Positions 2,701 to 62,094 of a DNA stretch of 64,000 nt are shown here, piece after piece (the first letter of the stretch is position 1; every line of letters starts with the position of its first letter). Location of the stretch: assembly GCA_003971905.1 (NCBI GenBank), contig RSEE01000003.1, positions 744,001 to 808,000 on the forward strand, given 5' to 3'. The stretch comes from Moniliella sp. 'wahieum'. Taxonomy: Eukaryota. The position numbers and the translations under genes were made by a program. The notes below the pieces were generated by a model. That model was not told the DNA's origin and did no database searches. It saw nothing but the letters and a program-made list of their open reading frames with translations.

Positions 2701-5700
2701 CCCCCATTCCTGATTGGTGCGGATCCTTTCCTACTTTTTATTCTCGTTCCTTCCCGCTGTCCTTATCCAATATCTGCGGTTTCCAAACACTTGATTCAGT
2801 TCAGCTAACCTCGAGTCGACTTGTGTGTTCCTCATCTTCAAACTCAACTTCCATCTTTCATCCTCCTCAGTCGAGGAGCCATCCTTCATCTGAGTCGAGT
2901 ACCCGTACCAATTTAAGGTGTGGATCCCGGCCTCATGGCCTGCCGTTCGTTCTCAATCTCAGCGTTGGTATTTGTTTTGCCCACCATCCCTCTGCCCGTC
3001 CCCAAGGCATAGATGTTATAGACACGTTATTATGGCCGACCTCGGCGTTTACGCAGCCTAGTTGTACCTGCAGATGCTTTTGTTTCACGCCCAAAACCTC
3101 TCCTCGCCCCTAGCTCCATTCTCATACAGCAACTAAACCAATCCCGAAGAAATTACCGTGAGTCGTCCCCATCAAGTAAGTAATTGTGCCTCGCACACCT
3201 GGGTGAAGCCTCTTACGGCACCATCCCTGAAAGGTTGTTTACTTTCACGATGATAGAGAGGGTTTTTTCGTGAACACCAACAATATTTGGCATTATCGAC
3301 GTACAATCGACGCAAAGTAAACGTCCATCCAATGGCTTTGGTCTCCCGCCCGAGTTTAAATTTCTACCCCTCACCGTTCAGCGTTCAGCCTGAACCCCCC
3401 TCCTCCGCTCCAATTTATCTCCACATCCTGAACCTCTCAAGCCCCTCGTGCTATTGCTTCTTCTGTGACGCAATCTAGGTCTATGGTACCCGTCAATATA
3501 TCATTAATCGCGAGTTTGACTGGGGCCCACTGGGTGTTTGAAGGAGAGTATAATCCAGCTGCGAAATTGGCGTGGTCAACATGCGATATGTGCGTACTTC
3601 AACCGGAGAGCTCTATCCATGGGTGCTGGGAGGTCAGGGACTGTGGGATGGTTGACAAGCAGAGGGGTGCGAATACTAGTTGGGATGCGAAAAAGTTTGT
3701 TATGGAATGGTAAGGATGTGGTGATACCACTATGGATCGTGTCGTGAAAACATAGAGGGTACGTTCGGAAGGAAGTAATTGGAAATTCTGTGAGAGCGGC
3801 AAGTAGCAAGGAAGTCGTCGGTGGGTATCATCAAGACAATATGAGGTCCACAGACTTGGTGCGATGAAGGAAGAGGCAGGGCTTGGACATGAGGTTGTGA
3901 AAGCAAAGACGATCGATCTCAGAGAATTAAATGATGCAGCCACTCACGAATTCAACCAGACCATTACGCTGTCCTTCAGTATCCAGCACTTCAACACCCT
4001 TCTCTTAGACTTCTTTCGGGACATGAGCGAAGCCCTCAATGTCAGCTGTGAACGGACTGGGGCAGTTCTGCTTCGGGAACTGTGGTTTAAGAATTGACGG
4101 CAGAGGCTCAACAAACCGCGAAGAGGCATTCGGCATCCGTCTTGGTACTTAGCACCCAAACCAGGGCAATGCAAGTGCTCCCTCCCGAAGGGGAGGACAC
4201 ACCACCTCCTTCATCTTCCGAGTACCAAAACGCGTCAGTTCAAGGCGAAGTCTGGGACAATGACATCACGGACCCCTTCAAATCCTCCGGGGCCAACGAG
4301 ATCTTGGACAGACTTGGGCGTCAAGGGAACACCATCGGTTGTCAGGAGAAGCGCGTCATCGTCTCGGGTGTGGTCGAGGGTAAGAGCAAAGGGGGAAGAG
4401 TGCGGTCCAATCGGGATCATGGAAGTATTGGGCATGGAACCGAACATGCTCATAAAAGTGTGGGCAAGTCGAGAGTGAAAAGGGAGATGGAAGGGAGGAA
4501 GAAACTGAGATGTTAAGAGCGAGGGGGATAAATGAGGGGGTCTTGGGGATTGCCGGGAACAGGATGGGAGAGATCAAGGGGAGGAGCGGTAGTCGAACGC
4601 TGAGGATGGGATTACGACGCACCATGGGAGTTGGTTGGGTGCAAATATTTCATCAGAAAGGGTTATCAGAAGTATGAGGGGGTACAAGAGTAGAGGTAGG
4701 TAGGAGGTCTGGTACAACGGGAAGATCAGTAAGGTTGGATGTGTTACGAGGCGCCCCGTTTGTCTCCCGGACGCAGAGCTCCGCATTTCATAGGCAAGGC
4801 ATGATCTCATTGAAACACATGTCGGTCCCGTTAACCTAGCGAGCGAGAGTCAGCGGAGAGGTTATCTATGTTGCGAATATCCTCCGCGGCCCGTCGTGGC
4901 AACATGAACCCTTTGTTCCCACCACACCGAATCTTGGCGGAACCCTTAGTTACCTGCTGCGGCCCATCACCAGATCTCGGTTTTCACAGAACGGGCCCTG
5001 CTTTCCCTTACTACTGGCCGTTGCCCTAGCCTTATCCTTTTTGGGAGGCACCAGGTCTGTGTGTACACGCAGCAACGTGAAGTGCTGCATGATGTTACCA
5101 TTTTTCGGACAAGGTGAGTAGTAGAGCAATCAGGGTGCGCTATAGCACGATCCGTAAGGATGGAGCCGACTTGGAAGTACTCGGCGACGATTGAAGGAAG
5201 GAGACAGGTTTCTTTGGCTGCGTCTTTAAACTTATCTGGCCGCTGGTTTTCCTGATTCCGGTCAAGGTACTTTCACTCTCAGCTGCAAGTCTACGCTGCG
5301 GAGCCATGCCTTGATCTCGCCATGGTCTTTGCTGCATATTGGGCCCCTGCCAGTACCCATTTGGGGCTGATAGGATGCACCTCTCCTGTCCAGCTAGCTT
5401 TCTGTCGCTCCCGAACAGATTATCGTATCGGGCCTGTCTCGCATAGAAATGGTGTGCAACGCAGAACAAAAATCGGGAGACGTGTGGTGTGTGTGGACGG
5501 TGTGATCGAACGGGATGTGCAGACAAATCTGGGGGCGGGAAACAACCTATAGATCAAAAGATGGATGGGTGGTCCACAGGGTAGCACAGCAGAGCGATCG
5601 CCTGGCGGGGGTTGTTAGTATTTCAGTGCTCAACCATAATGATCTGCATGATGATCATGGATCGAATCAGCCAAAGACGGGTGGGGTGGGCGGAACACCA

Positions 5701-6386
5701 ATGGTTATCGACCGTCGGTTATCTGCACGTGTATGGCCTGTAGTTAAATCATTAACGTTTAACCATCAAATCATCGAATGCCACACATTTCTCAAGGCCG
5801 GGCGGCGGAGCTCCATCGTCTCATCATCGATCGTCGATCAACGAGCATATGGACCGTACTGCATAGTACATCATGCATCATGGATCACCCTAGCTTTGCG
5901 CGCGCATGTGTGCACAGGCCAGCCCAGGGGTGGGGCGGGGCGGACAGGGCAGCCGACCCCTCAGCCACCAGCCAGGGTGGGGCTCTACGCGGTCTATTCA
6001 ACGTTAAACTTAACAGTTCGTTAATATGAAGGCTCATCGGCTATTAGAACGACCGTAGGTGTGCTTGGCACTTAAAACAACCTCATCCGCATTGCCACTC
6101 TTTCCTTCCCAGCCAGGCATCCGATCTCAAACCTCAAGAGTGGGATCCTGGAAGTTGGGTGCCGCTCGTTCATTGCTTCTTCCCCACAACCCCCACCATC
6201 TCGCCTTTTCGCCCGTTTTTTCGCTTGCGTGCGGGCTAGCGTGCCGACGAAGAGAAAAAGCTAATAGCGGTGTTTGTGTGTGTGTGTTCATCTCATTATG
6301 CCCAGCTCCAAAGCCCCTGGGCACTCTACGGGCCCAAATCCCCTTTGGTCTCGCCTAAAAAATTGATGCGGACCACTCCCTAACCC

Positions 6387-8300
6387 ATGGCACCACCCCA
6401 AACATCCCTAACGTGCCCCACTCTCTTCATCAACTTCACTATGACCATCCTCCGGTCGCAACCTACGCTCCATCACCCCCTCCCTCCAAGCCCGTCTGAC
6501 GCGGAATGCGAAACACTCGGAATGACACTCTAGCATCTCTTGAGCGGCGATGTACCGAAGTGAACCCTTCGGAAGGTCTCTCTCTTGTCTCGCACTACTT
6601 GCCTGGCAAAAGTGCCCGGCTTCACCGTCTTGGTTCACGTCGCCATCGCGGCCGGTCGTTATACGATGACCAGATCAAGCCCATATCCTCGTTCATCTAT
6701 TACACGACCTCTGTCCCTTTTGGTCCTACCAGTGGCGGTGCCTTTCGTCGCTCGAGTGTCGTTACCCCTCGCTTACCCAACACTGAGCCAGAGCCAACCA
6801 AACCAAAACCCGCTCTTTCAATTACCTGACATTCCAGCTGCCTCGGCCCTGCACACTCACAAAGTGGGGGCAGGGCGTGCTGCATGGGGGCCTGATGGCG
6901 CTGGTAACGCCGCCCTTGGTGCGGGTGGATATGAAGATGACGATGGGATCGACATTGCCGTCATCCAGGGTACTACCCAGCCCGAATCCGCCAATGGTGT
7001 TGGCACCGGTCTCATTCAGCGTGTCACGGGACGACGCCCTTCCTCAGAACAGGAGGACTTTACCCCAGAGCCACTGGAAAAGCATATTGCCAATAACGAA
7101 GACGCATCGATTAAACCAGTCGGTAGTTTCCATCGCACGTTCGGTGGATTCGTGTGGCGCCTGACAGGGCGCCACAACAAGATTCGCCCTCTTCTGTGGA
7201 ATAAATTCAAGTGGGCCCTGTTTGTCGGCAATGCGTTTCTCACTCTCTATGGTATTGCCGCTTTGGTCGGCACAATTTTAACATGGACCCGTGTTTGGAG
7301 CAAGTCGGACAACGTCCTGGTCTCGGCCAACGAACTGATATGCACGTATTCTATCACGACATTGACTGTGATCTTTGCGTATGTATTGACATCTCATATG
7401 CCCGACCACTGTGCAGTATCGACTGTTGCCGCTACGCTATTTTTCGTTCAGCCATTGTTGGTTGGTGCGGACTCTTACTCAACAACCGGGCCTTTCTTAC
7501 GGTTTGGAATATCCTCTTGTGGATTTCGTTTGCTTTCCTTGTGGCACCAGGGTACCTAGCTTACAAAAAGCACACATTCACCTCGAGGGCAAACTAACGA
7601 ATTGTGGAGTCGCTCGTTAGATGTGACCCAGGGTCCATCGTCCAGAACACACTCAGTTGTTGCGGGTATTACAACCCCACCATGGAGGCGTCAGAGACCA
7701 ATCTTTGTTACGCACGAATTCTCTGTCTGGGTGCAAGGGACGCTTCCTCCGCTTGAACGAATGATGTTTCGCTATTTTTACACTGCTGCATTCTCGCTGG
7801 TTGGACCACACCTGTGTCTTATCGTACTGGGTCTGCTAGCTCCAACCACGTAACGTACCGCTTGGCAAGGGTATTACGCCACCAGCTTACCAACTCGACT
7901 CCCGTACTGCTCGAACGATTAAGGACAGCTTCCTCTTACAGTTGGCCAACATTTACTCGCCCGAACTGGTATGCAAGTGCTGCAAGTCCAACGTCGCAAC
8001 ATGGCTCGCAAGCAGCGTATGGTACCGAGCACGACGGAGAGCAAGCACCGCTCTTCCTTGCTTCCTCCTAGCACGCCCCCAGCAAGTAGTGGCGCTACTA
8101 CTCATACCATGGCTGACTCGGTTGTGCAAGCCCCAAGGACCCTACTGTTAGCACCACAGCTTCGCTCTTGGCTGTTCCCATCACGGAACTCCTCGCTTCT
8201 GGTCGGGACGACGCGGCACATGGGGTTGGCTTGCGGACCCATGACTCCGACTTGTCTATCGGGTCTGAGTCTCACCGGGGAAGTGATCCCTATACTCTTT
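6387..8300 (+). CDS. TSP2: Tetraspanin of the basidiomycete Tsp2 family (intron plus frameshifts; ends approximate)
   Basis: WNKFKWALFVGN, FAFLVAPGYLAYKKHTF, LEGKL..WSRSL, the CCGYYNP..EA...CYAR..GCKG loop at about 7657-7740 and SNHVTYR. Confidence 0.85.
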
Positions 8301-8992
8301 CGCGTTAGAGGCTGGCGTTTTCTCGCATTGTTTATCAGCAATAGCAACGGGCATTCTGTTCCCTTTTCCTCATCCATCCTGTTTCTATTTATATCAGATC
8401 ACAGGGCTTCATTTTGTATCGTTTAGGATAGCTGCAGTCATCGCCTCAGTCGTCTCCTAGATGAACTGTGGCCCATCTGTTCGGCGTGTGAACTGGTTGA
8501 AGGCAGCTGGATCCACCGTGGGTGCTGGAATCCTGCGTGCGCTCCCTCGGCGATTGCGGAACGTTGAACGTTTCACATTGAACTTGAACGTCGAACATTG
8601 AACACTGCACGTTGAACGTGTACGTTGAGCCTGCCGGCGCGCCCAGGCACAGGAGGAGAGGAGGCGGGGCACACAGGCGGGCTGCTGGGGCTCCGGAAGG
8701 CAGGAGGCCAGTGCCGCGTGGTCCGGCGCTGGGCCAACCCTAGCGCAGTGCGCTCCTGGGCGCCCAGGCTGGCCAGAGCCCAATTGGTTCGCAGACGCCA
8801 GTCCGCCGGGCAGGCAGCAGCGCCGCGCCCCCCACCACCACCTGCTTCCGCCCCACGCGTCGCGCCGCCCCTTCAATTCAGCCCGGCCCCTGCCTGCGCC
8901 CCCTTCTCCGCTCTCCATTCTGCTCCGCTCCGGCCTCTTCTCTCTCCGTCGCTGCCTCCCGCCCTCCCCTCCACTTACCCCCCTCGGTCATC

Positions 8993-10065
<1,073 letters not shown>

Positions 10066-12967
10066 TGACAGATGGGTTCTTTCCTTCAGCTTTGTCGCTG
10101 CAAGCTTTCTGACGACGGTCATGATAGACACCACCGAAAGAGAGAGAGTAGCATGCGGTCATTCTGAAAGCTCTTGCGGTTGCGCTTTCTTGCCCACGTT
10201 GATTTTGATCTCTTTGACTCGTACTAGCTTGGCACGTGTCTCCCAGATGAAGGTCCCCATAGAGGTTACACCCGGTTTCCTTGCGCTCATGCATGCTACG
10301 CCCTAAGCCCTGCGTCAAGGAAGCTGTTTGAGAGATGGTAGTTGCACAGAGCATTGCTGTGTCGATGTGTCTGTACTGATGGGGGTTTGGGCGTCACGCG
10401 GTCACGCGTCACGCGTCACTAGTACATTGGCACGTGTTGTGACGCGTGACGTACGTAGATATGGATAGCTTGCCCACAGGCAACACAATCCGCTTCAGCG
10501 CACTGACGGGAGCAGCGGGCAGCCCGCATGCGTGCGGTCTCTCCTCCCTGGCTTTCCCTCCCTCCTTTGTCGTGGCCACCACTGCCCCATGCTCTTCGTT
10601 CCACACAATACTTCGTTACCGCCCACCATCGTCTGCTCTGATACTCTCGACGTTATCCGAGAATGTTACTACTGTTAAGCTCACGGCGCAACACGGTCCC
10701 CGGCATCCCGACGTCTTTGGAAGTGCCTGCGATAATGTTCTTTTTCCCACCATATCTACCAGTCTTTCCGCATATGGTATCCTTTCCTCTTCTTCTCCCT
10801 CCCCCGCCTTCTCATCCTCTGATTTCGATTTTTCTCGCCGGCCTGAGCTACCGAGTGAGCGTCGCTCACCATCGGATCCCTATATCCTTCGCTCTACTAC
10901 TTCACAATCCCAACAATCTCAATCCATTTGGTGATCATGGCCAGCCCTCTCCACAAAGGCTGTCATCATGTAGACTTTAAGTCTGTTTCTAGTTCTGTCT
11001 GTGCGCCTTGAAGAAGACAACTTTGAATCTGCTAGCCTTGGCCTGGATCCGCTTTTGTCAGAGCGTACGAGCCAACGGAGTTTTCCTTCGATTCCGCTCG
11101 TAGCACGGAATCGAGGGATCCACTTTGTTTCGCGCAATCGCTTCCTGGGCCAGGGTGGTGCCCACGGCAAGGGAGAAATAAGGGAAAGTACGAGTTCAGA
11201 AATGTAGAGAAGTTTTAGTACGGTAGAGAAGACAAGCGGGAGGGCGCGTTGGGTGGGTCAAGCAGGGGCAAGGTGGGCGCAGTGACGGGAAGATGGGGAG
11301 GCGAGAGTGGAACGGATGTTGCAGCAGAGTCCATGGCAGGCGTGAGGCCGAGGGGGAGGAGACGGAAGCCCAGCGCAGTGGTGGCTCGGGAGGGATAAGC
11401 TGGCCCCGCAGATCCCACTCGACCAACACAGAATGGATGTTGGCCGCCGCTCCAAGCAGGCGTGGATTAGGTAATATACAGGCGCCAGGTGGCACCAGTT
11501 CTCGTACATCCGATGGCATGATCGCGACACTCCTTGTCCCTTTTGGCAGTCGTATAACGCCGCAGCTGTTGCGGCAGTCAGTGCCGGACAGCCTCGCTAC
11601 TGCCACTGGAAGTGGCATGTGAGCGAGCGCTCAGGCTGAGCACTGGGGTCGTATTCGACTAGAAAGCTTCTGCGCCTGAATCGTCCACAAGACTGGTGCG
11701 CTGTGCGTGCTCTCGGAAGGAAGGAAAGTCTGATTCACGGGACTCAGCTCCGCGCGGTCCGTCCTAGCACGGATGCCAACGGTGCCTTTCACGGGTACAC
11801 GCAAGTTGTATACTGAGGCGCGTAGTTGTCCGACTTCGAGCAAGCGCACGTCCGCGTCATGTTCTGAGAAAAAGTTGGGATCGCATCAGTCGGTGGTAGT
11901 GTGCGGAGATGCCAGCGTCTTGCTTGAAGCTTGAGGTGTCTGTGAAAATCTCTTATCATTCTGGCATCCACTCCGTACAAGGCCAGAGAGCAGACAGTTG
12001 ATGGTCTTGGAGTAGTTATGAGCCCACTCCGTATAGCTTCGAGGGCTGGGAGGCATCGTACCGCGTAATGACGTAGCACGTCAGTGCGTCAGCCGCCCGC
12101 CGGAAATGGGATAGAGAACCACGCTGGACCCGCACAATGAGCAATCGGTCACACTTCAGTTTGCCCTTTCAAGACACTCAACAGTACCAACAGCAACGCC
12201 ATCCCCTGTTGGAACTTGTTGGCAAGGTGCATTCCATCAACCCCTTGTGGGCGCGCATGGAACAAGTATGCGTACTGACTTCGATTTTCAGCGCCTGCCT
12301 GAGCGCGCCGCAAGCTCAGGCAGGCGCTGAACTCAGGCTGAGCGCTCTCAGTTCCTCAGATCTCGCCTCTTACCGATGAGGTCACCGGTCATGGAGTCTT
12401 CGTCAAAAAATCATCGGTTATCGAGTTATCATCGATATCATCTATCACCTGCTGGCCGAAGCGCCTGGGAAGCCGGTGCGGATCGGGTGTCTACAATTTG
12501 GTAGGCACGACGACCCCCCCCCCCCCCTAGTCCCGGCGGCACACCGCCCGCAAGATAGACGGGTGCTGGCTAGGAGCGAACGAACGTTGAACTGCTGAGG
12601 CGGTGGACGACGGGAGGCGATGTGTGACATGTGAGTATCGGTGCGCAATCGGGAATGCGCCGGTGGTTCCGACAGAGACATCGGTCGGCTCGCGGCCGAC
12701 GTTGCAAAACCTAGGGGTATTCGTGACAGGTGCAGTGCGTGGCGCAGTGTCCAATTAAACTGGGCTGTTCTCTGCAGCACACAAAAATACCACTTTTGAA
12801 CCACTGTGACAACGTAGAGACTCAGGCGTGACATGGTGACAGGCATGCCAAATCCTCTCAGACGTGCCCCTCCCCCACTAAAAGTCATTGCATCCGCCCC
12901 TCCTCCCACGATCTACCCCCCCCCTCTGGCGGCATCCCTCCCGATCCACCCACTACATCCTTGCTGG

Positions 12968-14056: not shown

Positions 14057-14316
14057 ATCCGAACGACAAACAAGAGTCATCCTAGTTATCCAACCCGTTT
14101 TTCCTGTCAACTCGACAAATGTAAGAAAAAAGGGAAGAGACAAGCTACAACACTTGCTTGGCTTTCTCTCGCTTTATCTTAATGTGATATACCCTCTCTC
14201 TCTCTCTCTTCCGTCGGGGCCAGCAGTGAGTAACAAGTTATGTTTTCGTTCGTCCTGGCCGATTACGCGCGCAAATGGTAGTTGGCTCCAGCAGACCGCA
14301 ACCGCGGGCTCTATAT

Positions 14317-14541
14317 TGCATCCATATATCATTGACAGAGCTTAAGGCAGGGACAGGGAAACGCTACGCATAAACCGCCCCATTCATCTTGCGTGTGTGC
14401 TGCTTGGTAGCACCAATCCCGCTAAGGAACCACAGGGGAATGGCCCGGAGATCAGGACCCTCTGGTGCGCGCCACTCGTTTCCATACCCCGAAGAGCGCG
14501 TGTGGACACGGATGCACGTGGTCGACATCCGAGCGAGGAAC
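14317..14541 (-). mobile_element. 5'-truncated 3' fragment of the CRE/Cnl1-like non-LTR family found at 58.7-60.7 kb
   Basis: Translates FLARMSTTCIRVHTRSSGYGNEWRAPEGPDLRAIPL versus FLARMSTTFLRVHTRFLGYGTGWREPEGPDILAIPL in the long copy. Shares the terminus tgcatccatat..cattgacagagcttaaggc. Confidence 0.92.
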
Positions 14542-15629
14542 GAACTTGAGTAGTGGTCTGATGGAAGGAAGCCGAGGAGCGAGAATTAACGATAAGGGAG
14601 CGGGGGTGGCAGTGCAAAGCGACTTGTCGCCACCCCACGACACAACCGTCACTACTTTTATATACGGGCAGTATATTGTCACTATACTACATCCATACAC
14701 ACAGTAGAGTTGCCGCTGCCTCGATATCGAAGTGGACTGCAACTCTGATTGAACTCTCCCTCTGCTCCCAGATTGGGTGTGGACGTGGGGGATCCCGACC
14801 ATCGGGTCCGAATCTCCTTCTCCAACTCACGTTTTACACTGTATATATAGTACCTACCTGCTCATCGTTCATCCTTCAACGATCAGATCAACTGAATCCT
14901 TCGGCCAACAAGCCGAGAAGAAAAGGGCTCATACAATCTTGCTCTTTGCTCCTTGGGGCCTCCTAAATGCTGAAGTCCTCGGGCTAATATGCAGCCGTTG
15001 TCGGGAAAATATGTTGAGGTAGAGTGGTAGGTACGGGTACGTATGTGGTTTGTGGTCGTGAGGGCGGTGAAGCGAACAATGCCCATTCGCACATCAAGCA
15101 TGGGTCCAAAAACCCTGCAAACTGAGACCATTAGCGTCATCGACCATCCGAGGTCTATGATACCCTACCACCCGCACCGACCCTTGTCCCATCCCCCAAA
15201 AGCCTCGGATGGTATCCGAGACATTGAAAACAGACCCCAGGTAAAGGGTGTACCCGTGTTTCGTATATATACATGGGCTCACAGAGGGAAAGGGAGGGAA
15301 CAGAAGGGAACGGAACAGAAAAGGAAGAAACGGGAAAGGAACAGAAGCGAGACCGAAGAAGGTACGCGCACACCGAAGGAGCCCCTATTTAATCCCCAGT
15401 GGGAGGAACAGAGAAAAGCAGGGTCGAATCGAATCGAATCATTGTTTTTATACTCTATCCCGGCAAGAATGACGAGAGAGAGACATAAAGGGGCCCACAG
15501 CTGCCGCACAACGCTTCCTACAAGAGAAAGAAAAAAGAAGAAAAACTCAAAGGAGTCAAGGACCAATTCCCAGTTCACTTTGGCAGTAGAGGAATACGAA
15601 GAAGAGGAGCAACACCAGATCCGGGTAGT

Positions 15630-21349: not shown

Positions 21350-21496
21350 TGTGTGGATGAATTGCGTGCTATACTGGTGGCATGCGACCAATGGCACTGC
21401 AGCAGCAGTGTTCTTATTTCTCCTTCTGCTCTTTTGAGGGAACTATATGCAGTGAGAATGCTATGACTTTACCACCTCCATCATCTCCAGTTAGCT
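21350..21496. repeat. Dispersed repeat, copy 2
   Basis: Direct-orientation match to 1968-2129. Confidence 0.9.
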
Positions 21497-27049: not shown

Positions 27050-27080
27050 CGCAGAGCCCAGCAGGTGCTGTTGTGTACCC

Positions 27081-33444: not shown

Positions 33445-34467
<1,023 letters not shown>

Positions 34468-48839: not shown

Positions 48840-49656
48840 GAAGAAGTACGATCAGGCCCAGGCAACCGACACAGCCCCCTGGTACAGAGTAAACTCAACA
48901 TGGATCGCGCATAGTGGGCGTGCAGTGCAACACTGCCCTGTGCCGCCTACCTTCGCGGCCCACGCTCGAGAGGGTGAATCAACATCCCCCGGATGTGGGC
49001 GCGTCCGGGCCGGCCCAGCGCCAGTGTCCTACGCGCTGCGCTGCAGAGCACCCTGTCTGAGAATCCATGTTCGAAGCGGATGAGATCATCGATGCATCAT
49101 ACATCATGCATCATGCATCATGCATCATTCCTCCGTCGGTCTCATTCATCATCGATCATCGACCAAAGACCCGCGTCTGGCGAATCGACGAGTCACGTGC
49201 AGTATCGTTTTCCGCCCAGTCGTAATTAATTCCGGGAGGATTAGGTAATGGATGATGCTGACGTGAAAAACATTGATGACGTGGGCGGGGACAGCAGTTG
49301 CCGCTACAGGAGCGCACAGACCACCGCCTTCGGGCCAACCGGCGAGCCACCGCCGGTGAGCGGACCGGGCACGGGCAATAGTACCGTCTGATCCCCGATC
49401 AAAGAGCCGCTCAGCCCTCGGGCCCCAGTACTCAGTGCCTCGCGCCTGCCAGCTTCATGCTTCAGCGCTTCAGCCAGCACTCAGCCGCTCAGCGCCTGAG
49501 CGCCTCTGCCCCAACGGGGAGGGTTGGGAACGATAAGTCGATGAGCTACAAGGGCGACGGGTGATGCTTCATGGGTGATGCTGATGAATGACAAAAGAAA
49601 GACTGAACGCCGCCTCGCCGTCTCCCCACCCTTCTCCTACCACCGCCTCTGCTATC

Positions 49657-50702: not shown

Positions 50703-51464
50703 TTTTTGGCCTTTTTACTCTTCAAATTATTTTGGCGAAGCCTATGAACGACACAACTGTGAGCACGATTGAGCTGAGCATCCAAGCGAAGGGCGGCAAG
50801 AAAATAGCGCAGAGGCTCTCGAAGTCGGAAACGATGTCATTGTTGGGTGTATTTTAAGAGCTCAACTGGGTTGCCAGAGTCGTCAACCCACAAAAGTTCC
50901 ACGGGCACATCATTGTCAGGCTCCTCACCAAAATTGGAGATGAAAGCCTGGTTCTCTTCTCAGTTGGCACAGTTCAGTAAGTGGACCGATACGGCGACGA
51001 TGGCCGAAGGGCATGTCGCTCACATGCGCCCCGGGAACGCAACCAATGGAACGCCAACCAATCTCGACGGATATGACGTGGTCGCACAGGGCAACTAAGG
51101 ACTGATGAGGAGCAAAAAAGGGAGCGCAACGTTGATGGTGGTGAATGCGTTGAAGGGCGCGCACAGGCGGCATTATCTCGATAATCCATAACGCAGGTTG
51201 TCTATGGGATTATCGTACTGGGGGTGGTTCGACGACGGATGTAAATTTCGGGCGACGAGCGTACGTTCCATGTTGGGAAGAGCGAGAGGGTCGATCCGGG
51301 CCGATGCCACCAGGAATCAATGTGTGATCAGCGACCAGTAAGCAGTGGCCATTATCGTGACGCGTGATGATGCACGGACGGACGCAACATTTCACCCTTC
51401 ACTAGGGTTGGCGGATGGCTCCATCCTGACGTCAGGAAAATCGGGCGAGAAGACAACCACCATC

Positions 51465-53259
51465 ATGCGGGCAACGTCTCTTGTCCCATGCTTCCACCGT
51501 CTTCACCGTCTCCACGACCTTTCTCTGTTGGCCATGACGCTTCTACCTGCGGCAGCAGATGTTGTTGTTGGGTGGAGGGATTGCTGGCCTGGCCTCTGCA
51601 CGCTATCTGGCCTCTTCCCTCCCGCCCAGCGCTCGCATTGTCGTCCTCGAGTCCACCTCCCGCCCTGGCGGCTGGATCCATTCCGAGCGCATTTCCCTTC
51701 AGCCGCCCCCGGATCTACCAGCACTCCCACTGCGCTGGTTGAAAACGGGCCTCGGAGTCTGCGTCGCGTGGAGCAACTGCATTGGCGATGCTGGACCTAG
51801 TAGCCCAATCGGGTCTGTGGGAGCGCATGCTGCGTGTGCCTACTCGGCGCGTCGGCGCGCGCAAACGCTACATTTGGTCTGGGGACATATCAACCTTCTT
51901 CCCTCGGGACTGCTGAATCTGCACCGCGTCTTTACTGCTCCAGTGCTACGCCGCTCGTGGACGGATGCGCTCTGGACCTGGTTACTCCGGCTCGAGATAG
52001 TGCCCAGCCTCGGCCGCGTTCCGAGTCGATTGCCGAAGCAAGTCGGGTTCGGATGAGGAACCGTCTTATGCAGGACGAAAGTATCCACTTTTCTCTCCCG
52101 GCGATTTGGGGGACGCACGCGTCTGGCTGAAGATGTTATCTCGGCGCTGTGCATGGCATCTGGGCCGGGGACACTCGCACCCTCTCCGTTCTTCACTGAT
52201 GCCTTCGTTGTGGGACCGGGAACGTACCCACGGCCGGCTTTTGTTTGGGCGTGCTCGCCGTATCCTGCCCGCCCATCACATGTCGGAAACGGAGGCTCGA
52301 GTCGAACAAGCCCGCTCTCTCGCGCGCGTTCAATGAGACAGTGGACCGTACTTGCTCGAAGGGTCTAGGTGAGGAACGTGTTGGCCAGCTCGCCAACATT
52401 CTATCTACTCCTTCCCGGAAGACTGGGCGAGATCCCCAACGCCATCGTGCAACAGCTCGGCGCCCTCCCCAACGTGACGATTGCTACCGAGACGGCTTGT
52501 GATCTGCTCGAGTCCCGGCCAGACGGGGTTCAGGTGTCTACGCGCCACGGGTCGATCTTCGCAAAGCATGTCATTGCTTCTCTTCCATCGGGCAAACTGG
52601 CACCTTGCTCAGCCCACAATTCCTACGTCCCATTGGTGGAACCATCTGCAACGGTGTGGGGTAGTGAATGTGGTGGTGCCCGCCTGGGTGGCAGCCCAGT
52701 GCGCCCTGGTAAGAGACTCCTGGACGTTGAAGGATTTGGTGTACTGACCCCGGTCAGAGGAGAGAAGGCAAATCCAGACAAGTGTCGGGGTGGTGATTGA
52801 TTCAGAGGTGCCAAGCCAGGACGAAGAACGCCATGTCAAGTTGACCGTGATGCTCGGCGGCGCGTATTGGGCAGGGAAGGCGGATTCGGACCTTCCGTCG
52901 ATGGAACAGCTGGCCGAGGCGGCAAGCGTGCCGTGGAAAAGATTACAGGGATGCCTCGCGAGCCGCTCGACCATCCGGCCAGTTAATCCGACGCTCTGGC
53001 GCGCGACTGCATCCCTTGGTACACGGTGGGCCATGCCTACCGTTTAAGCCAGGTGCATCAGCAACTACTCCAGCCTCTCATGAGGGGGTGGGGAGGTCGG
53101 TTGGCGCTAGTGGGGGCCAGCTACTTGGGTGTAAGTTTAAATGACTGCGTGTACCATGCCCGACGGGTGGCATTGTCTATTGCCCAAGACCAGGCTACGA
53201 CCGGACTGGAGCCCCTAGCGCTCGAAGCTGGGATGGTGCTGGCAGACGATCAGCGCTGA
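51465..53259 (+). CDS. HEM14: Protoporphyrinogen oxidase
   Basis: GGGIAGLASARYL FAD fold, E....PGGWIHS, ENGPRSLR, EGFGVL, LTVMLGG, GASYLGVSLNDCV. Confidence 0.92.
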
Positions 53260-55681
53260 ATCATACCGCCATTGGACGTAACCACGATTCTCGCGCCAGA
53301 AGGAACGGGGGTTCTGTTCAGATCAAATGTATATGAAACAGCATGCGTGGTGCGAGCCAAACTCAGATCTCAGAACACAACACGCGGTACGGGTACGGCG
53401 CAGAGGGCAAGCACATCGTTGTTTGGCATGCGCCGGGCCAAATTGCTAGAATGGGTGCATGAATGAACGTCATGACACGAACTCTGTACCACCTTCCAAC
53501 GTTTGCCATATATGGCCATGGATATGGAGAGGTCAACTTGGCCGTTGAGTTCAACACATTCAACGTTCCAACTTGGATCAAAAGTGGACTGTCACTGCCT
53601 TCAATTGTTACGTGCCTTCACTTGTTACATGTCAGTGTTGGTGTTAGTCTGCTTCGATTTGGTTGCCTCAAGGCGTGTAACACATGATGTAACACGTATT
53701 AAATGTAGTTCATGAACATGTAATCGATAATCATTTATCGATTCCGTGTGTAACGCGCAACAGTAGCCATATGGTCTTGGAGGGTGTCGGGCTCGCGCTC
53801 CGTTGGCATTGAAGACGTTGAACTTGAAGGCCCTAAACGCTTGAAGCCAGGCGCTGAATAGCTTTTGATGCTCACTACCTCCCTCAAATTTCAACGTCTA
53901 ACGTTAGCGCTTAACGTCTGTGTGAACGTTGAATGTCCAGGCTTCAAGCTTCACGCTTAGCTCAAGTCTTATCGATCAAACCGTCGATGTGGGATGGGAA
54001 AGAGTGTGGAGCAAGCACTGGTGTGTGACATGTGAGCGGCTGAGCGGCAGGCACAGCGGAAGCAAGACACGAGCTGAACCATCGTCCTACTCGCAAATCC
54101 TGAAGAGTATTATACCGAGTGTGGGGAGGCACCCTTACACGTTGCCAAGTCTTACAACGCACCATGCCACTAAATTCCGCTGTGGAGAGGATGGCCGATG
54201 AGGATCGGGTGGCACAGCTATGGAGTAGCGGGAGAGTACAGCTGTGTGAGCATGGGTCACCGGTCAGGATTGATGAGACCTGGAGTCCTGAGGCCTGATG
54301 GTCCTCGAGGGTGAGCAATCGCACTGGTGGTAGTGGTCTAAGGCAACCATCAACGCCTACAGAGGAACGCAGCGAGTCGCCGCCAGGGCTAAGCTGCGGA
54401 ACAATGAAAAAGCAGGAGAGAGAAAACAACGGAACTCCCACAGGTCTGAGGAGGAACTGAAGGGCACCAAAGCACGAGCCACCGATGGCTCAAGAAGGAT
54501 ACTGACGAGGTGCGTGTATGCAATACCTTCTTAAATTATACCGATTGTTGAGTTGTGAGTGTGTATACACACCTCGGCCTCAGGCCTCAAGCTTCAAGGT
54601 CAAGTCGCGGCCTTCTCTCGTCTTCACGGAGTTATTACTCAATAGTGTTACAGATCAATGTGGCGTAGTGCATAGCGGGCTGGCCTGATCGATGATCGGC
54701 CTACTAACGCACAGCGCAGCTTTGACGACACAGCTCGGAGCCACAACTATGGAGGGAGGTACAGCTACCTGAGACTCAGGTTGGAGCAAAGGGAAGCACG
54801 TGTTTAATAGAGCGAGACCGAGAAGATACTCCTCTCGAATCCCAAGTCGCGCCCCACGCACGCTCCCCATTATTCTCTCCTAGGTCTTCGTCTTTTCTGC
54901 CGAGGCGTGTGATAGTAATTACTTGGACATGTGAGCTGGTGAAATCTGAGATCTCTCTTTCGATACGATGAATGTTGATCATTCGATCATCAATCGACCA
55001 TGCCAGACCACCAACGAGAGGCATTTTGATGGTAGGATGCAATAAGAGGAGAGTTGTGTGTTATTGCAGTACAAACTGATGGTATCTACATAAGTTTTGA
55101 CGTTATATCGGCGAAGGTGTAACTGCAATGAAGATTAGGCCCATAACAGCCACAACCCATGCACAGTTCTTGGTTACAAACTATTTTGGCTTCCTGCATA
55201 TATGCAATGCAATCACTGATGCAAGAGGGATGGCGAGCTGTGAGCACGCCGGCAGAGCCGGAACGCTGGGTGGGGCGCCACAGGCTATAGGGCTGTGTGG
55301 TGTGGGAGCCCGCATTCAGAGCTCGGAATGAATATGCGAGGTACAGCATACTACTAGACGTGAGTGGTGCGCTGCGGTTTGCTTTACATGCTTCCAGTCC
55401 GCCCTCTCTCCTTATCGAGTACAACGCCCTGGCGATCTTTTCACTAGCCCCGTTGTGGGGGCAGATGTGGATCTCCCTCTCGTCGAGACCCGTACCAACA
55501 ACGAATGACCTAGCACCCCCGGCTTGCATATATATACCCAATTCACTCCGCAACCCCTTGCTATTGCTCACCACCCTTCTTCTTTTCAATCTCCCCCTTC
55601 CCACTCTTTGTTCTTCGCGGCCGGACCGCCTTTCTTTCCCAGCACTCCCCCTCTCTCATCGCCTTTCTTCCATTCATCATT

Positions 55682-57992
55682 ATGGTCAAGGCTGTGGCTA
55701 CACTGCTCTGTGGCTAGTAGCCTAGCCAGCATCAGTGTCACTGATGCCAGCTCCCTCTACGCCCCTGCATGCTCATCTTGCTCGCCGCCAAGGCGGCCCT
55801 GCTGCCATTCCCGCAACTGGGTCCAGGAATCTCTCGCCCATCCCGACGATGCTGTCAAGTTTACTATTGCGCAAGGGAGAGAATTTCCATCAACTTGCCG
55901 ACAAGATGAACCAGATTTCCCATGAGGGAAGGGAAACTGCTCTCGGATGAGGAAATGACCAAGTACACTTCCCCATCGACGCAAGACAAGAAAGCGCTGG
56001 TCGCTTACCCAGAAGCACGGCATCAAGTCAGGACGTCACCTGGTCCAAGTACGGGACCACGCCACCGTCACTACCACTGCTGGCACCACCAGCAAGCTTT
56101 TAACCAACCTTCGCTCTACCGATTCAACAATACCGCCGTTAACCAGATGTCGATCAAGGCTCACTCTCTCAACATCCCCCCGCATCTGTCTAGCATTGTC
56201 GAGCACGTTCTAATCTGACCTCCTTCAAGCCCGCTCCGTCTACCCGTGGGGCCAAACTAACGCCCCTCTCCCCTGCTGCTGCACAGCGTCTCGCCCAAGG
56301 GGATGCGATCCGTCGGGCGTCACGGGCAAGTGTGCTTCGTTCCTTGTACGGGTAGACAAGTACACCCCTTCTGGTAAGGGGTCTACATTCCCCTCATGAT
56401 TCTTGGCTTCAGTAACGAATATGCTAGCAGCGTGAGTATTCTCTCTTAAATGATGAGTGTGGTGGAGATCATTTCCTCTATCTGTGGACCTACTCCTGTG
56501 GTTTTATACTGACATCTTCTTCATCAAACCAGTCCGATCTCAAGTCCTACCTTCAGCAGTTTGGTCCTTCCGGCTCAGAAAACACCCAAGTGAAGTTCAT
56601 GGGTGGCGGTGGCGGCCAGAACGACCCGAGCCAGCCGGGCACTGAAGCTTCGTTGGATGTGCAGGTTTCGGCTGTGATCAACTACCCGCTGACCAACACC
56701 TACCTTTACTACAACGAGAAGGATGGGATGTTTGACGAGCGTTGCAGTATGTCCTGGACAAGGGTCTGAAGCCGGGCGTGATCACCATCTCGTATGGCTA
56801 CTCCGAGTCCCAGGCAGGCCAGTCCCAAAACCAGCACACTTGCAAGCTGGTTCAACAACTTACGGCCCAGGGCACGACAGTGATCTCGGCTTCTGGCGAT
56901 TCGGGTGTGGAAGGAGTGCAGTACTCAGGCGAAAGTTGCTCCAATGGCTTTGATCCCACGGCGCCAGGTACCTGCCCTTACGTTCTTTCCGTGGGTGCGA
57001 CCAAGAACCCGAGCGTGGGCGCAGAAACGGCCGTCGCCTGGGGCGGTGGCGGCTTTTCCAATGAATTTTCCACCCCCGACTACCAAAAGTCGGCCGTCAA
57101 GACGTATCTCGGCAAGCTTGGGAGCAAAAACCAAGGAAAGTTCAAGCCCACCGGCCGCGCGTACCCTGATGTTGCTGCCATGGGCCAAAACTTGGTGCGT
57201 CTCATTTATTTTTGCTTCCCCCTTGACAGAAGCATAGAGGTGTGCTTTGAACGGTTTTTGTCTGACCCTCTCCTTCCTATCTTGTCAACTTTTCTCTAGG
57301 TGATCGTCTCAGGCGGCCAACAGAATACTGTACTCGGCACCTCGGCCAGCGCACCCATCTTTGCTTCTCTTCTTTCGCTAGCCAACGATGCTCGTCAAAA
57401 GAATGGGAAAGGACCCATCGGCTACGCTCACCCTACTCTCTACCAATCGGCCTCCTCCTTTACCGACATCACCTCGGGTCAAAACGCTGGGTGCAATGGG
57501 GACCCTACGCAGCAATCCCGCCGCAGCCTCCCTGCCCGCCAGTTTGGTAGCGGTAGTGGCAGTGGTGGAGGTGGAAGTGGCGGAGGTGGAAGCGAGCTTG
57601 GATTCCCTGCTACTCAGGGCTATGATGCGGTCACAGGGCTTGGTACCATCCAGGTGTCCAAGTTGGTCTCTATCTTGTCTGGTGCCTCGGGCTCCAATCC
57701 TGGCTCCGGATCGGGTGGCAACCCCTCTGGTGGAGGTTCAGGTTCGGGCGGTGGCAATGGTGGCGGTCAAGGTTCGCAGGGAGGTGGTCAAGGTTCGCAG
57801 GGAGGTGGTCAAGGTTCGCAGGGAGGTGGCCAAGGCTCCCAGGGAGGCGGCCAAGGCTCCCAGGGAGGTGGCCTGGGCTCAATGGGAGGCTTCGGGAGCT
57901 TCTTTGACAACTTTGACAAGAACTTTGACAATGGGGACGTGGGCGACTTCAGCAGTCTGTTTAAAGGCGCCCGAACAGTTAGCCTGGGTTAA
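55682..57992 (+). CDS. Secreted sedolisin / tripeptidyl-peptidase (S53) with a Gly-rich tail; introns about 56432-56532 and 57195-57299
   Basis: Hydrophobic N-terminus and prodomain; EASLDVQ, SYG, SGDSGV, GRAYPDVAA, GTSASAP, YDAVTGLG. Confidence 0.93.
57762..57870 (+). repeat. 21-bp coding tandem repeat x5 encoding GGQGSQG
   Basis: ggtggtcaaggttcgcaggga-type x3, then gg.ggccaaggctcccaggga x2. Confidence 0.95.
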
Positions 57993-58709
57993 GACGCTGA
58001 TGGGAAGACCTTTTCCATGCTCCATTGGCCCCCGGTTCTCCTTGAAAACCTCATTACAGGTCTCATAATACACGGCAATCTCTCTGAACCCCGTCGCCTA
58101 ACAACATACACTCCTACCCCGTTCTTTTATCTAAGAAACCCCTATGTTTCTCCTTTGTTGGTGGAAGGGCACTGCTGGCAGTTCCCCCTCCACCTTGCAG
58201 TTCTTCATCTCTACGCTGCATATGGCCTTCTAATATGCTGATGCCCCTGACCCACATCTCTTTTCAAGAATAGTTTACGGGGGCATCTTCTTTCTTTTTG
58301 TCCTTCAATTATGTCCTTGTCGACCTTTATGGGCCTCCAGCCTTATCGACCTCATCCTGTTGGTCATTGCCACATAGCGGTTACCTCAAATGATCAGAAA
58401 GAGACTGGCTCGGATGTGGGATTTGAATCCATCACCTTTTACTCCATCAGGTCTCCCTTGCACTGCGAGGGAGACGTACAGCCACCATATATATAAGAGT
58501 CACAGGGGTGCTTCTGAGCTGCAGGATTCTAACAATCGCATCCATCTCTTCTGCTAGCTCTGCTTGTGCTTATGCGCTTGTGTTAGTAGGAATCTGAATC
58601 TCGAAAATGTTACGGCCAGTCCGAATCCTACATTAGACTCATTTAATAGACTGTTCTGCATCCATATCATTGACAGAGCTTAAGGCTTGGACCAAGAGAA
58701 ACGCTCTAC

Positions 58710-60680
58710 TGCACGTCCATTTCATTGGCAGACTTAAGAAGGCTGGGACAGGGGGAACGCTACATCTAAACCTAACCGTTCATCTTGCGGGGGTTACTTA
58801 GGGGCGCCACCAGGGTCAAGGAACCAGGGGGATCGCCAGGATATCAGGACCCTCCGGCTCACGCCATCCGGTCCCGTACCCTAGGAAGCGCGTATGGACA
58901 CGGAGGAACGTGGTTGACATCCGAGCGAGGAACCATTTCCACTGAGACTTAGTAGCCAACTCCTTCCAATGCGCAAACAACTTGCTCGCCGTCTTGGTGC
59001 CGTAGTATCCTCGCGTCGTCAAAACCAGGGGGAAAAACGTCTCTTGAGTGCGTCCCTGGTACTTGGCGTTCTTCTCGCATTCTGCTTGTTCAAGCATCCG
59101 AAGCAGCTCCTTCTCCCGGCGTTCCAAGGGGGTTGCGGTGCTCGCATGCACCACCCTCCGGAACGCGCTCTGCGCTGCCAGTGATCCCGTGTCGCGCAGC
59201 GTGTGGTGGAACTCCATTCCTGATCCTCCGAGTGCTCCGGGTCCCATCACGCGGTAGTCAGTGCGCTGTGTCCTCTGTCTCCGGCCATCCTCGTCCTCCA
59301 CCATTGGTTCGTTGTGGACATGGGTGTCGGGAATGGAGCGTAGGAGAGCTGGAGAATGGGCTCCCGCACTGCGTCATGCAACGCTCCAAACTTGGCCTGG
59401 GAGCGAGTGCAATACATGATGTGCTCCAGCGAGGACATGACACCGCACTTGCACATGCTGCGCGTGGTGCGGCACAGCGAGCGGAGCTGGAGACCAACCT
59501 GGACCTGGTGGTCGGAGAGCCTGAGGTACGGGACGGACGGAATGGCGGAGAGCCAGTTGTGGCTCAGCGGGTTGCTGTGCTCAACCACGTGACGACCATC
59601 GGCAGCGTCCAGCTTCTGGAGCAGCTCCTGTCGACTTTTCTCCCACATCTCGCGGCAGCGCTGGCGTTGCTTCGTAAATGCGTTGGCCTCTGCTGTTTGC
59701 GGTCCCGAACGGTCAACATAAGTGGTAATAAGATAGTCGTTGACCTCGTTGGCCGCGGCACGGGCGTGGGGCGCGATATAAGAGTAGAGCGGGCTGCCGC
59801 ATCCTCCTAGCCGGAGAGGCAGGCTCATGAGCATGTCGAAGTGGTCGTCCTTGGCACCTTGGGGATCCTCGTCGCCCCGGATCCGTCGGAACTCCGTACA
59901 GATGAAGGCATCGATCTCGGCCAGCACTTCGTCTAGCTCTCCTTCCATCTGCATGGTGCGGAGCAGGTGGCGCAGCTTGGTCTGAGTGCTGAGCCGCCAT
60001 AGTAAGAGGCGTCCCTGGCGGGTGATGCCATCAAACTTAGGCATGTTCTCCCTCAGACTGGCCAGTTGGGCCCGGAGCCACGATCGACGACAGTCTACCC
60101 CTCCCACACACGTGCCCAGAACCTGCAGACCATCCTCCCGGATCTGGTCCCGGTCCCGCTCGACGCACTTGCGCAGGTTGAGCTTGAGGCCTGACGCGTC
60201 GTCTTCCAAAATCTCGGCAGCTTGGCCGGTAATGCCTGGCTCTGGACCGAAAATGGTAATGTCGTCCAGGTATGCCATCACCAGGTGCCCCGGCGGCAGA
60301 GCAATGCTCAACTTCTCTAGCGTGGGCCGCACTGCGATGGAGAAGAAAAAGGGGGCGAGGGGGTCGCCCTGCCGCACGCCCTCTGCCGACAGGACGCTGG
60401 TCTCATTTCCGCCCGACGCAACCCAAAGCTGGGTGGGGGAACCATAGATCCACCGGCCCAAGGTGAGGAGGTGGGGGGCGTAGGCATGGAGCGCCTTGGC
60501 GAGTGTGCGACGGCGCACAGTGTTGAACGCGTTGGTAAAGTCGAGCATGGCGACGTGGCTGAAGTCGCCCATTTCCGCATCGTTCTCCCCGCCTGGCGCT
60601 GTCATGCGCTCGACCATCCGCACGATAGGCTCCACCCCGTTTTGCGATGCTACTCCCAGCTGGGTGGGGAGAAGCCAGCT
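58710..60680 (-). mobile_element. 5'-truncated non-LTR retrotransposon, CRE/Cnl1/MoTeR-like (RT, CCHC and restriction-like endonuclease)
   Basis: QLGV...GVEPIV, LDFTNAFNTVRR, GVRQGDPLAPFFFS, AYLDDITI, LPLRLGGCG, CKCG....EHIMYC...HDAVR, RTD...EKNAKY...FFPLVLTTRG. Stop at 58816 and about 105 nt of 3' UTR. Confidence 0.92.
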
Positions 60681-62094
60681 AAAGCTCTACTGTATAAAGC
60701 GCTCCCATATCCTGTTTTACCTTATTGACTGTGGTCCACCGGCTCACAGTCGGTAGACCAGAGGTTCACCTCGCGGTTCCATCTGCTTCCACGCTGGAGG
60801 TACCGTGCTAGCGTGACGCTGTCTCCGTTCCCTGGTCCATTCTCCCATGATGCATGATGCATGAGTAGTAAAGGGCCCTCCTCTGCGTGTCTTGCCTTTT
60901 ACCAGTGTATATAGATGCTTCTTCTGTACCCAGATCCAAATTTGTGTCACACCTCAACGACCTCATCGACTTGTACTGCCCATCTGGCTCACTAGGCCAC
61001 ATATACAACGTGGAGGCAAGAGAGAGATGGGATGGGTGCAGGTCAAAAGTTAATTATATGCAAGATCAAGATCGAATCTGAGGTGAGCGCATCCCGGCTG
61101 TGGAGAGGGCACATAGGCCATTATCGATTTTCAAGGAGAAGGAGGAGAATGGATGACGTGATGCTTCTGCAGAGGCTATCTCAGAAGGGTACTAGGAGGG
61201 CCTCTCAGATTTCATACCGAAAAGTCGAGGGTACTGCGGAGCCGCGGGAGCGTCCGGGCCGACAAGAGAGGGGTGATGCCGGTGATGCCTATAACGCAGA
61301 ATGACATGATTGGGGGCATCCTCTACTATAGCTGGCGCCGAGAGCCCTGACATTGACGCCCCTGAGCCTGAAGCTAATCCAATCTTGATTACAACAGGGA
61401 AAGGAAAAGAAGGTAAGGAGCGATGTCGATGAGGCGGCCTGAGGCCTGAGGATGCGCACGATGGGGGATGTATTTTGGACAATATGTGATGTGACGGGAC
61501 GTACGTTACGCGTTACGCATACCCGTTTTCTTGGTTTTCTTGGCATGATTTGACAGACTATATAAGACCAACTTCAATTTCTCTTTCTCTTTCTCCGTCT
61601 CCCTCTCTCATGTGGTACACTGCAACGTACTATTATAGAGGAACGTCATGACATGGCCGCTGTGGATCAGTACGGCTGTGGCGGAAGAAACCTCGATCAG
61701 TTTTGAAACACAGTTGTGTGCCTCTATATATGCATTCTTTTGTACAACAAGCGGATATCCGGGCGGATCCACTGAGTACTGAGGTACTGAGGAGCAGCGC
61801 TGAGATTCAGGCACAACAGGATGGGATGGAGGAACGGATGTGCTGTTGGTTATGAGCTGACCCATTGCAGCTCCTCTGTCACATGTCACTAGTCCCTAAC
61901 ATGTGGCACGTCCTCGCAACGCCCTGTCCAAAGGCGACTGCCTCTGCCATGATGCATGATGTGGTCGACACGTGACACGTGACGCGTGATGCCGGTGACG
62001 TTCTCGGTGATATATCATGCATCATACACATCATGCAACCATGCATCATGCGACATAGCATGCACAGGATGCATGATGAATGATCGACAGGGAC

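Follow-up and report, generated by a model that had tools for sequence, protein, structure and literature searches.

The window analyzed here, a 64,000-nucleotide (nt) stretch of Moniliella sp. 'wahieum' DNA (GenBank assembly GCA_003971905.1, contig RSEE01000003.1, positions 744,001 to 808,000 of the forward strand), contains protein-coding genes and retroelement pieces, called from Pfam matches on its 161 open reading frames (ORFs) of at least 110 amino acids (aa), together with mainly intergenic short elements in which T(C/G)A triplets recur every 7 bp. An initial annotation had described these elements as arrays of heptamers built around an interchangeable palindromic 4-mer. The period-7 pattern is present, but its usual unit is a single 7-base insertion that leaves a one-sided 12-mer, here termed a scar, and the pattern looks like repair scars numbering thousands per genome rather than a protein-binding code. 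Throughout, S denotes C or G, TSA denotes T(C/G)A, and all window counts refer to this one 64-kb stretch.

Period-7 recurrence of T(C/G)A with palindromic spacers

Counts of TSA-N4-TSA 10-mers were compared with a background of 100 Markov simulations each at order 1, 3, and 5. At a lag of 7 bp, the observed/expected ratio was 3.88 for TCA followed by TCA and 3.06 for TGA followed by TGA, whereas the same pairs gave ratios of 1.2 to 1.6 at lags 6 and 8, in agreement with the 7-bp pitch proposed in the initial annotation. Mixed pairs were depleted at lag 7 (0.67 for TCA followed by TGA and 0.61 for TGA followed by TCA). Same-S TSA-N4-TSA 10-mers with a palindromic N4 numbered 59, compared to Markov means of 2.1 to 3.9 (maximum 11), so the proposed excess of palindromic spacers over background was also borne out; those with a non-palindromic N4 numbered 55 versus 28 to 36 in the simulations. 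The 59 palindromic 10-mers map to 39 loci, and 13 of the 16 possible palindromic N4 sequences are represented among them. The annotation had counted 12 of 16, and the interchangeability that it claimed is real; its list missed ACCGGT (12382, 54257) and AAATTT (53884). Each position that it cited shows the motif given for it, and Tandem Repeats Finder agrees, reporting many short period-7 rows at these coordinates. Its use of ATATAT at 62008 as an array example was mistaken, because the sequence there is TGA-TATA-TCA, a mixed-S form that lies outside the same-S class.

The symmetry is specific to this period. Among perfect period-7 dimers, 21 of 34 consist of a 6-bp palindrome plus one base (expectation 3.5), and 17 of these 21 are of the type A-N4-T plus C or G. 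Self-symmetric units were at or below expectation in perfect dimers of periods 4, 5, 6, 8, and 9. Long arrays are the exception: the 52 maximal chains include 46 with two TSA triplets only, five with three, and one with four, so that the heptameric pattern of the annotation stands and its array form applies to few loci. A dispersed-repeat search of the window indicated that the heptamer arrays are not part of any longer repeat family.

Anatomy of the 12-mer scar

The usual element corresponds to one 7-base insertion that yields the 12-mer TSA-n1n2-n2'n1'-TSA-n1n2, or its mirror image (primes mark complementary bases), i.e., a direct repeat whose copies are parted by two bases reverse-complementary to the adjacent two. 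When all TSAnn-pp-TSAnn 12-mers were collected from both strands (n = 80), pp was the reverse complement of nn in 63, matched it at one position in 13, and did not match in four, compared to a chance expectation of 1 in 16. An alternative rule, in which pp is the reverse complement of TS, accounted for one unique case among the 80. The simulations gave 0.45 exact 12-mers (63 observed) and 10 one-mismatch forms (83 observed).

The duplication of TSA is direct and not inverted (59 same-S versus 4 mixed-S): the palindromic-N4 forms comprise 34 TCA..TCA and 25 TGA..TGA, compared to two each of TCA..TGA and TGA..TCA. Perfect 10-mers centered as TSA-N4-TSA numbered 59, and those in the opposite phases 20 to 25. 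As a rule, the conserved block grows by exactly two bases and on one side only. Where a chain had two TSA triplets (n = 46), a 2-nt flank match was confined to the left in 18 and to the right in 15; six chains matched on both flanks and seven on neither. The left and right matches are negatively associated (Fisher p = 0.007), and the joint table of extensions has its modes at (2,0) and (0,2), with eight cases each, and only three cases at (2,2). Perfect runs (n = 141) were 12 nt long in 75 instances and 13 nt long in 32, giving a modal length of less than two units.

Two kinds of atypical junction were noted. At 41640-41659, within an AGTACT array, an inverted junction (TACTCA-GT-TGAGTA) switches the orientation from TCA to TGA; it is one of very few mixed-S junctions. 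The same scar structure also occurs with T-A-A or T-T-A at its center (20063-20091, 5752-5763, and 61504-61518). Since such scars exist, the target is apparently T-N-A, with C or G favored about five-fold, a rough estimate from the sequences of a handful of cases.

Junction variants and the length of the duplicated unit

Less common joints retain more of the repeat. A 7-mer of the form NNTSANN, two palindromic bases, and the same 7-mer follow one another at 12427, 42044, 42736, and 61272, and the repeats at 12427 and 42736 stop at 7 bp. At 42932, 49460, and 61778 the two 7-mers are parted by one base, which complements an adjacent end in all three instances, and forms with an 8-bp period were found at six positions (10394, 12829, 49462, 42892, 54979, and 61780). 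The simulated expectation for these three classes of variant was 0.00. Plain 7+7 duplications with no extra bases are also present (e.g., 42641 and 61967). Because full 7-mers flank the one or two additional bases, the duplicated unit is 7 bp, NNTSANN. The fillers between the 7-mer repeats revealed no common element-end remnant. Short duplications of other periods were likewise in excess in the window, with 64 period-9 16-mers (7+2+7) versus 4.6 simulated and 69 period-8 forms versus 17 simulated; most have neither TSA nor a palindrome, which points to a second, unexplained source of small duplications.

Putative precursor sites

Deleting the seven inserted bases from 33 isolated one-sided events gave putative ancestral heptamers that are non-palindromic, with none of the two complementary pairs in 16 sites and one of two in 17. 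The palindrome would thus be made by the event, not recognized by it. C at -3 or G at +3 occupied 31 of the 66 outer positions, compared to a background of 0.305 (p = 0.005), which hints at a weak symmetric consensus, C-N-T-S-A-N-G; as is usual for transposases, it is weakly palindromic. This preference would account for the excess of GC-centered N4 (30 of 59); N4 made of G and C only contributed 15 of 59.

Distribution of the scars and features of the window

The 52 12-mer events fall into 44 loci, or about one scar per kb (Table 1). No locus lies in a Pfam-supported ORF (0 of 44; 5.9 expected from the proportion of TSA sites in these ORFs, p = 0.003), and ORFs of any kind that reach 150 aa contain 11 of the 44 (20.2 expected, p = 0.006). 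The initial annotation had reported the arrays as missing from coding sequences and transposable elements, and the first part of this claim is upheld for Pfam-supported ORFs. For the second part the evidence is weaker: no locus lies inside the long terminal repeat (LTR) element (0 of 44; 3.0 expected, p = 0.07), and a bare 10-mer is present at 60185 in a reverse-transcriptase ORF, where neither flank extends the pattern and the number is within chance expectation. A promoter-side location, which the annotation had also proposed, could be assessed in part, with ORF starts as a proxy for gene models, and would apply to several loci situated shortly upstream of them (28183, 28246, 51358, and those at 41.6-43.7 kb). 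Counts per kb are over-dispersed (variance/mean 2.7), with clusters at 41.6-43.7, 53.3-54.7, 60.8-63.2, and 17.6-17.9 kb. The densest of these includes full 7-mer scars (42044, 42736) and plain 7-bp duplications (42641), and one TCA serves both a left-type and a right-type scar at 54576-54598. The degenerate array at 8559-8628 was assigned period 7, 10.3 copies, and 70% matches by Tandem Repeats Finder and contains a perfect dimer at 8559-8572.

Table 1. Principal scar loci and Pfam-supported genes of the window. Positions count from the first nucleotide of the window.
Feature	Position	Strand	Context or basis
CATCATG x2 scar, perfect period-7 run	5869-5882		Upstream of coding-like ORF 6564-7556 (+)
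Degenerate (GAACGTT) array, ~10 units	8559-8628		Upstream of Arf gene (9448-10065, +)
TCA-CGCG chain (three TSA), 8-bp-period variant (10394), and opposite-strand TGA-CGCG scar	10391-10451		
Three one-sided 12/13-mers (11922, 12380, 12623) and a scar of 7-mer, 2 palindromic (P) nt, and 7-mer (12427-12442)	11922-12634		
Four scars in 300 bp, cores AGCT, TCGA, GCGC, and CATG	17621-17927		
Two scars (28183, 28246)	28181-28255		~650 bp upstream of ATG (28904) of Mug190-like gene
TCA-TTAA-TCA and 8-bp variant	33317-33336		Between Mug190-like and protein arginine methyltransferase (PRMT) genes
Densest cluster, 12 scar loci, 9 palindromic cores	41628-43631		Upstream side of Gti1/Pac2 gene
Isolated TGA-TCGA-TGA scar	44777-44788		
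Longest perfect array, (CATCATG), 27 nt (49102-49128), and TCA-TCGA scar	49087-49162		Upstream side of minus-strand kinase-like ORFs
One-sided 12-mer (51358)	51356-51367		170 bp upstream of amine-oxidase ORF (51538, +)
Cluster, 7 scar loci	53362-54698		Between amine-oxidase and subtilase genes
Cluster, 10 scar loci	60846-63172		Full 7-mer scar 61272-61287, 8-bp variant 61778, plain duplication 61967
Arf GTPase	9448-10065	+	Pfam
Reverse-transcriptase-type piece	24913-25716	+	Pfam
Mug190-like SMP/C2 protein	28643-33096	+	Pfam
PRMT	33540-34380	+	Pfam
NFACT-R protein	34845-35309	-	Pfam
Gti1/Pac2 (WOPR) regulator	39610-40236	-	Pfam
Kinase fragment	47380-47763	-	Pfam
Amine oxidase	51538-52053	+	Pfam
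Subtilase	56736-57296	+	Pfam
Reverse-transcriptase-type piece	59250-60686	-	Pfam

For the Mug190-like protein, the best-matching named relative is from Violaceomyces palustris (Ustilaginomycotina; 37% identity), and other relatives reach 41-48%. This result points to a fungal source, probably a remote member of the smut-related Ustilaginomycotina. The LTR retrotransposon spans ~21.35-27.05 kb; direct repeats at 21635-21813 and 26877-27047 (90-98% identical, 5.24 kb apart) bracket its reverse transcriptase/RNase H ORF (24913-25716), and a further LTR-like copy at 1968-2118 matches 21350-21482. A dispersed repeat links 14168-14541 to 58664-58933 (109 nt at 80% identity and 29 nt at 93%), and the latter copy, which adjoins the reverse-transcriptase ORF at 59250-60686 (-), may be the terminus of a second retroelement. 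In the open frame after the subtilase domain, an in-frame 21-bp (7-codon) tandem repeat of ~5 copies (57759-57889) probably encodes a Gly/Gln-rich repeat. Intergenic simple repeats comprise (AGGGG)6 at 16677-16705, (CCCCAG)20 at 23649-23770, and (CTTCCT)17 at 27083-27186, and a 26-bp duplicated A/G-rich block with ACAAAAGGGA-like words lies at 15297-15346.

Discussion

Read from their sequences, the scars carry what is apparently the signature of a 7-bp target-site duplication combined with hairpin-derived palindromic (P) nucleotides. We consider it somewhat better than an even chance (roughly 0.55) that they are excision footprints of a hairpin-type cut-and-paste transposon that targets C-N-T-S-A-N-G and whose repeat visits extend the arrays. 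From the observed anatomy and statistics we infer the hairpin chemistry, the transposon as its agent, and the insertion preference.

On this footprint model, an element would insert at a 7-bp target, abT[C/G]Acd, and duplicate it. Excision would then leave both flanks closed as hairpins, which host nucleases would cut 2 nt off the tip, so that the flanks remain duplex exactly to TSA and carry 4-nt self-complementary 3' overhangs, cd d'c' on one side and b'a' ab on the other. End joining that retained one overhang and dropped the other would produce abTSAcd-d'c'-TSAcd or its mirror image, with a net gain of 7 bp. Opening at the tip on one side would yield the 7+2+7 forms, and on both sides the plain 7+7 forms. 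Each scar would constitute a new symmetric TSA target, and re-insertion and excision, with later slippage, could generate perfect (TSA-N4)n arrays such as that at 49102-49128. Local hopping, a preference for open intergenic DNA, and selection against +7 frameshifts may together lead to the clustered, non-coding distribution.

Because N4 would consist of a flank and its own P nucleotides, any 4-mer palindrome is possible, and the middle base would be copied directly rather than complemented. The model would explain the period of 7, the direct and invariant TSA, the one-sided extension, the junction variants, and the non-palindromic precursors. The scars display the generic features of hairpin footprints, namely a fixed-length direct target duplication, P nucleotides, and heterogeneous joints, and, as in such footprints, a small set of products dominates over rarer ones. 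Expressed as overhang nucleotides kept on the left and right, the joints were 4/0 in 26 cases and 0/4 in 37, with 4/1 and 1/4 in three each, 4/2 in two, 2/4 in three, 3/0 in three, and 0/3 in four.

Several observations weigh against a transposon. No terminal inverted repeat element with a 7-bp NNTSANN duplication was found among 923 TSA-centered 7-mer pairs in the 64 kb, at two stringencies, and no DNA-transposase domain was present among the 161 window ORFs of at least 110 aa. For footprints, about one scar per kb is a very high density, and no known superfamily is an exact fit. Neither of two predicted by-products was enriched: joints retaining both overhangs (TSA + 8 nt + TSA) numbered 0, and those that had lost both (TSATSA) numbered 54 versus 47.

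Other ways of making the same sequences were considered and rejected. Tandem duplication of a palindromic heptamer, giving a 14-mer, is at odds with the rarity of both-side extension (6 of 46 chains; three cases at (2,2)). That N4 represents element-end remnants next to a 3-bp TSA duplication is inconsistent with the occurrence of 13 N4 sequences that follow their flanks, and a 5-bp duplication with one-sided P nucleotides was dismissed in favor of 7 bp on account of the lag-8 and lag-9 variants. Snap-back, strand-switch synthesis, resolvase-like hairpins, and an hAT-type offset hairpin all predict a complemented middle base. A Tc1/mariner-type footprint, with end remnants and a central mismatch, presupposes a 2-bp duplication that is self-complementary, and most N4 sequences are incompatible with this.

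The scars were also compared with known systems. hAT elements (maize Ac/Ds; plants, budding yeast, and Candida albicans) resemble the scars in that the duplication is retained with palindromic P nucleotides and small deletions. In C. albicans, Ac/Ds footprints (n = 128) contain short deletions and P-nucleotide insertions with two dominant products, and hAT footprints are attributed to hairpins on the flanks that are cut close to their apex (PMC5873905). hAT elements differ from the scars in their 8-bp duplication and in a palindrome whose center is the complement of the base adjoining the element (PMC5873905). This 1-nt offset predicts a complemented middle base, which the scars contradict, and we rejected hAT identity in view of the 7-bp duplication, the even and flush palindrome, and the 59 same-S versus 4 mixed-S forms. 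KDZ elements of Cryptococcus, too, duplicate 8 bp instead of the 7 bp of the scars. Mutator-like elements (MULEs), a superfamily found in fungi with a tendency to integrate close to genes (PMC6446971), share flank hairpin intermediates (Muta1) with the pathway proposed for the scars but have 8-10 bp duplications, and more than 90% of their excisions in yeast are precise (PMC5499845).

Flank hairpins, their opening by host enzymes, and end joining with deletions and P nucleotides have been described for hAT, Transib, MULE, and RAG systems, and V(D)J coding joints, Transib, and RAG are like the scars as modeled here in the flush flank hairpin, off-tip opening, and non-homologous end joining (PMC5499845). 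No RAG- or Transib-like gene was seen among the 161 window ORFs of at least 110 aa. In V(D)J-type joining, off-tip opening adds 1-2 P nucleotides; the target duplication made by Transib and RAG transposition is 5 bp long. A Transib/RAG-like 5-bp duplication was rejected for the scars, since it would require P nucleotides from a single end (the alternative end yields one unique case in 80) and the full 7-mer scars would be left unexplained. The target consensus of P-superfamily elements with 7-bp duplications is palindromic, with a central triplet that differs from T-S-A, and P-type excision leaves element-derived overhangs, not P nucleotides. Members of this superfamily (Galileo and 1360, which are insect elements) do have a 7-bp target duplication, as do the scars (PMC2775673).

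Heptamer arrays of bacteria (Xanthomonas, Beggiatoaceae, and cyanobacteria) are similarly intergenic with period 7 (PMC4692102, PMC4679880) but consist of one fixed, non-palindromic word per lineage in long arrays and have a different origin. As a control, 124 metagenome loci (508 kb) were picked for at least five TCA at 7-bp pitch. A palindromic pair was found in 30 of 1524 comparable 12-mers, versus 63 of 80 in the window, which excludes the palindromic rule as a universal property of TCA-phased heptamer arrays; most of the loci held arrays unrelated to the window pattern. One of them (L061:1540-3530) has two inverted GTGAC-heptamer clusters separated by ~1.8 kb, an arrangement reminiscent of subterminal repeats in fold-back transposons, with an unrelated grammar, and another (L088:322-345, on a 363-bp contig) contains perfect (GGCCTCA)n repeats, matching in type the arrays at 43277 and 54576 in the window. 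In the full-text literature, searched with most subscription journals out of reach, we found no description of a T(C/G)A heptamer grammar and no fungal element with a 7-bp duplication; nor did the full-text literature yield a paper on the Ustilago maydis heptamer family named in the initial annotation.

The same chemistry might be carried out by a non-mobile agent, i.e., a host-encoded, perhaps domesticated, transposase-like nuclease or a hairpin-forming break process acting on TSA in open intergenic DNA. The failure to find either a transposon copy or a transposase in the window would fit such an agent, as would the very high scar density, focused in a few regulatory-looking stretches, and the combination of a 7-bp duplication with a flush hairpin that is found in no known superfamily. 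We nevertheless regard it as unlikely: intact 7-bp copies on either side of P nucleotides are most simply obtained by prior staggered insertion, no transposon-free route was found that gives the duplication, the P nucleotides, and the same middle base, and 64 kb is too small to rule out a low-copy element. Less probable again is that a domesticated hairpin-forming transposase-like enzyme repeatedly opens T(C/G)A in regulatory DNA and writes the scars; if so, this lineage of smut-related fungi would possess a built-in generator of promoter variation that seeds palindromic motifs and microsatellites. Microsatellite dynamics biased by secondary structure, in which foldable heptamers (6 of 7 bases self-complementary) slip out, escape repair, and expand, can surely change the length of arrays once they are present, and they draw some support from the longer, partly degenerate arrays (8559-8628 and 49087-49128) and from the over-representation of short tandem duplications of many periods in the window. 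As the source of the pattern they are quite improbable, given that the symmetry excess is restricted to period 7 and absent at periods 5 and 9, that 46 of 52 chains have two TSA only, that the unit is a one-sided 12-mer of under two full copies with its phase fixed on TSA, and that the inferred precursors are non-palindromic. GC-only stems, moreover, are not favored (15 of 59), and palindromes are all but absent from the TCA-phased heptamer arrays of the 124 metagenome loci.

A mainly intergenic placement, in several instances just upstream of ORF starts, and a densest cluster upstream of the Gti1/Pac2 regulator gene are what one would look for in selected cis-regulatory elements, such as dimeric transcription-factor sites or a structural DNA signal multiplied in promoters. 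Some of the cores, moreover, equal ACGCGT or CACGTG, which are well-known fungal motifs. That such selection produced the scars is very improbable in our judgment, because the outer A..T and the spacer are identical around 13 interchangeable cores, symmetric sites, such as the fixed two-fold half-sites of a homodimer (e.g., of bZIP type), are missing (4 versus 59), the 2-nt extension is one-sided, and the junction variants track the flank sequence and not a motif. The same three features, namely the 13 cores, the ratio of 4 to 59, and the one-sided two-base extension (not expected from any binding-site model), speak against the polymerizing or multimeric binding factor suggested in the initial annotation. 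Its other suggestion, a fold-back or template-switch process that writes self-complementary arrays, was correct insofar as the bases behave as hairpin-derived P nucleotides; template switching was rejected since it would give a complementary middle base, and arrays are not what is primarily written, the unit event being one +7 bp scar at a site that is not itself a palindrome. An assembly or sequencing artifact is hardly credible: the pattern needs exact, locus-specific complementarity to neighboring bases, the scars avoid ORFs, mutational decay is visible (83 one-mismatch forms versus 10 expected), and we know of no sequencing error mode that yields such a pattern.

Transposon footprints with P nucleotides are textbook knowledge. 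A 7-bp duplication target centered on T-S-A, scars on the scale of a main intergenic component, and self-renewing targets that seed arrays appear to be undescribed. For transposon biology, the footprint model would imply a hairpin-type element with a 7-bp T-S-A-centered duplication that is matched to no superfamily, and the 12-mer rule, which is easy to search for, would allow past transposition to be counted and dated in any genome. For the birth of microsatellites, a self-regenerating target would be a means of yielding arrays, and for motif discovery in fungal promoters, repair could create palindromic hexamers such as ACGCGT or CACGTG. If the model is true, about one base-pair-exact transposon scar per kb persists in this fungus, and an appreciable fraction of the "motifs" and heptamer microsatellites between its genes would be fossil footprints, not a regulatory code.

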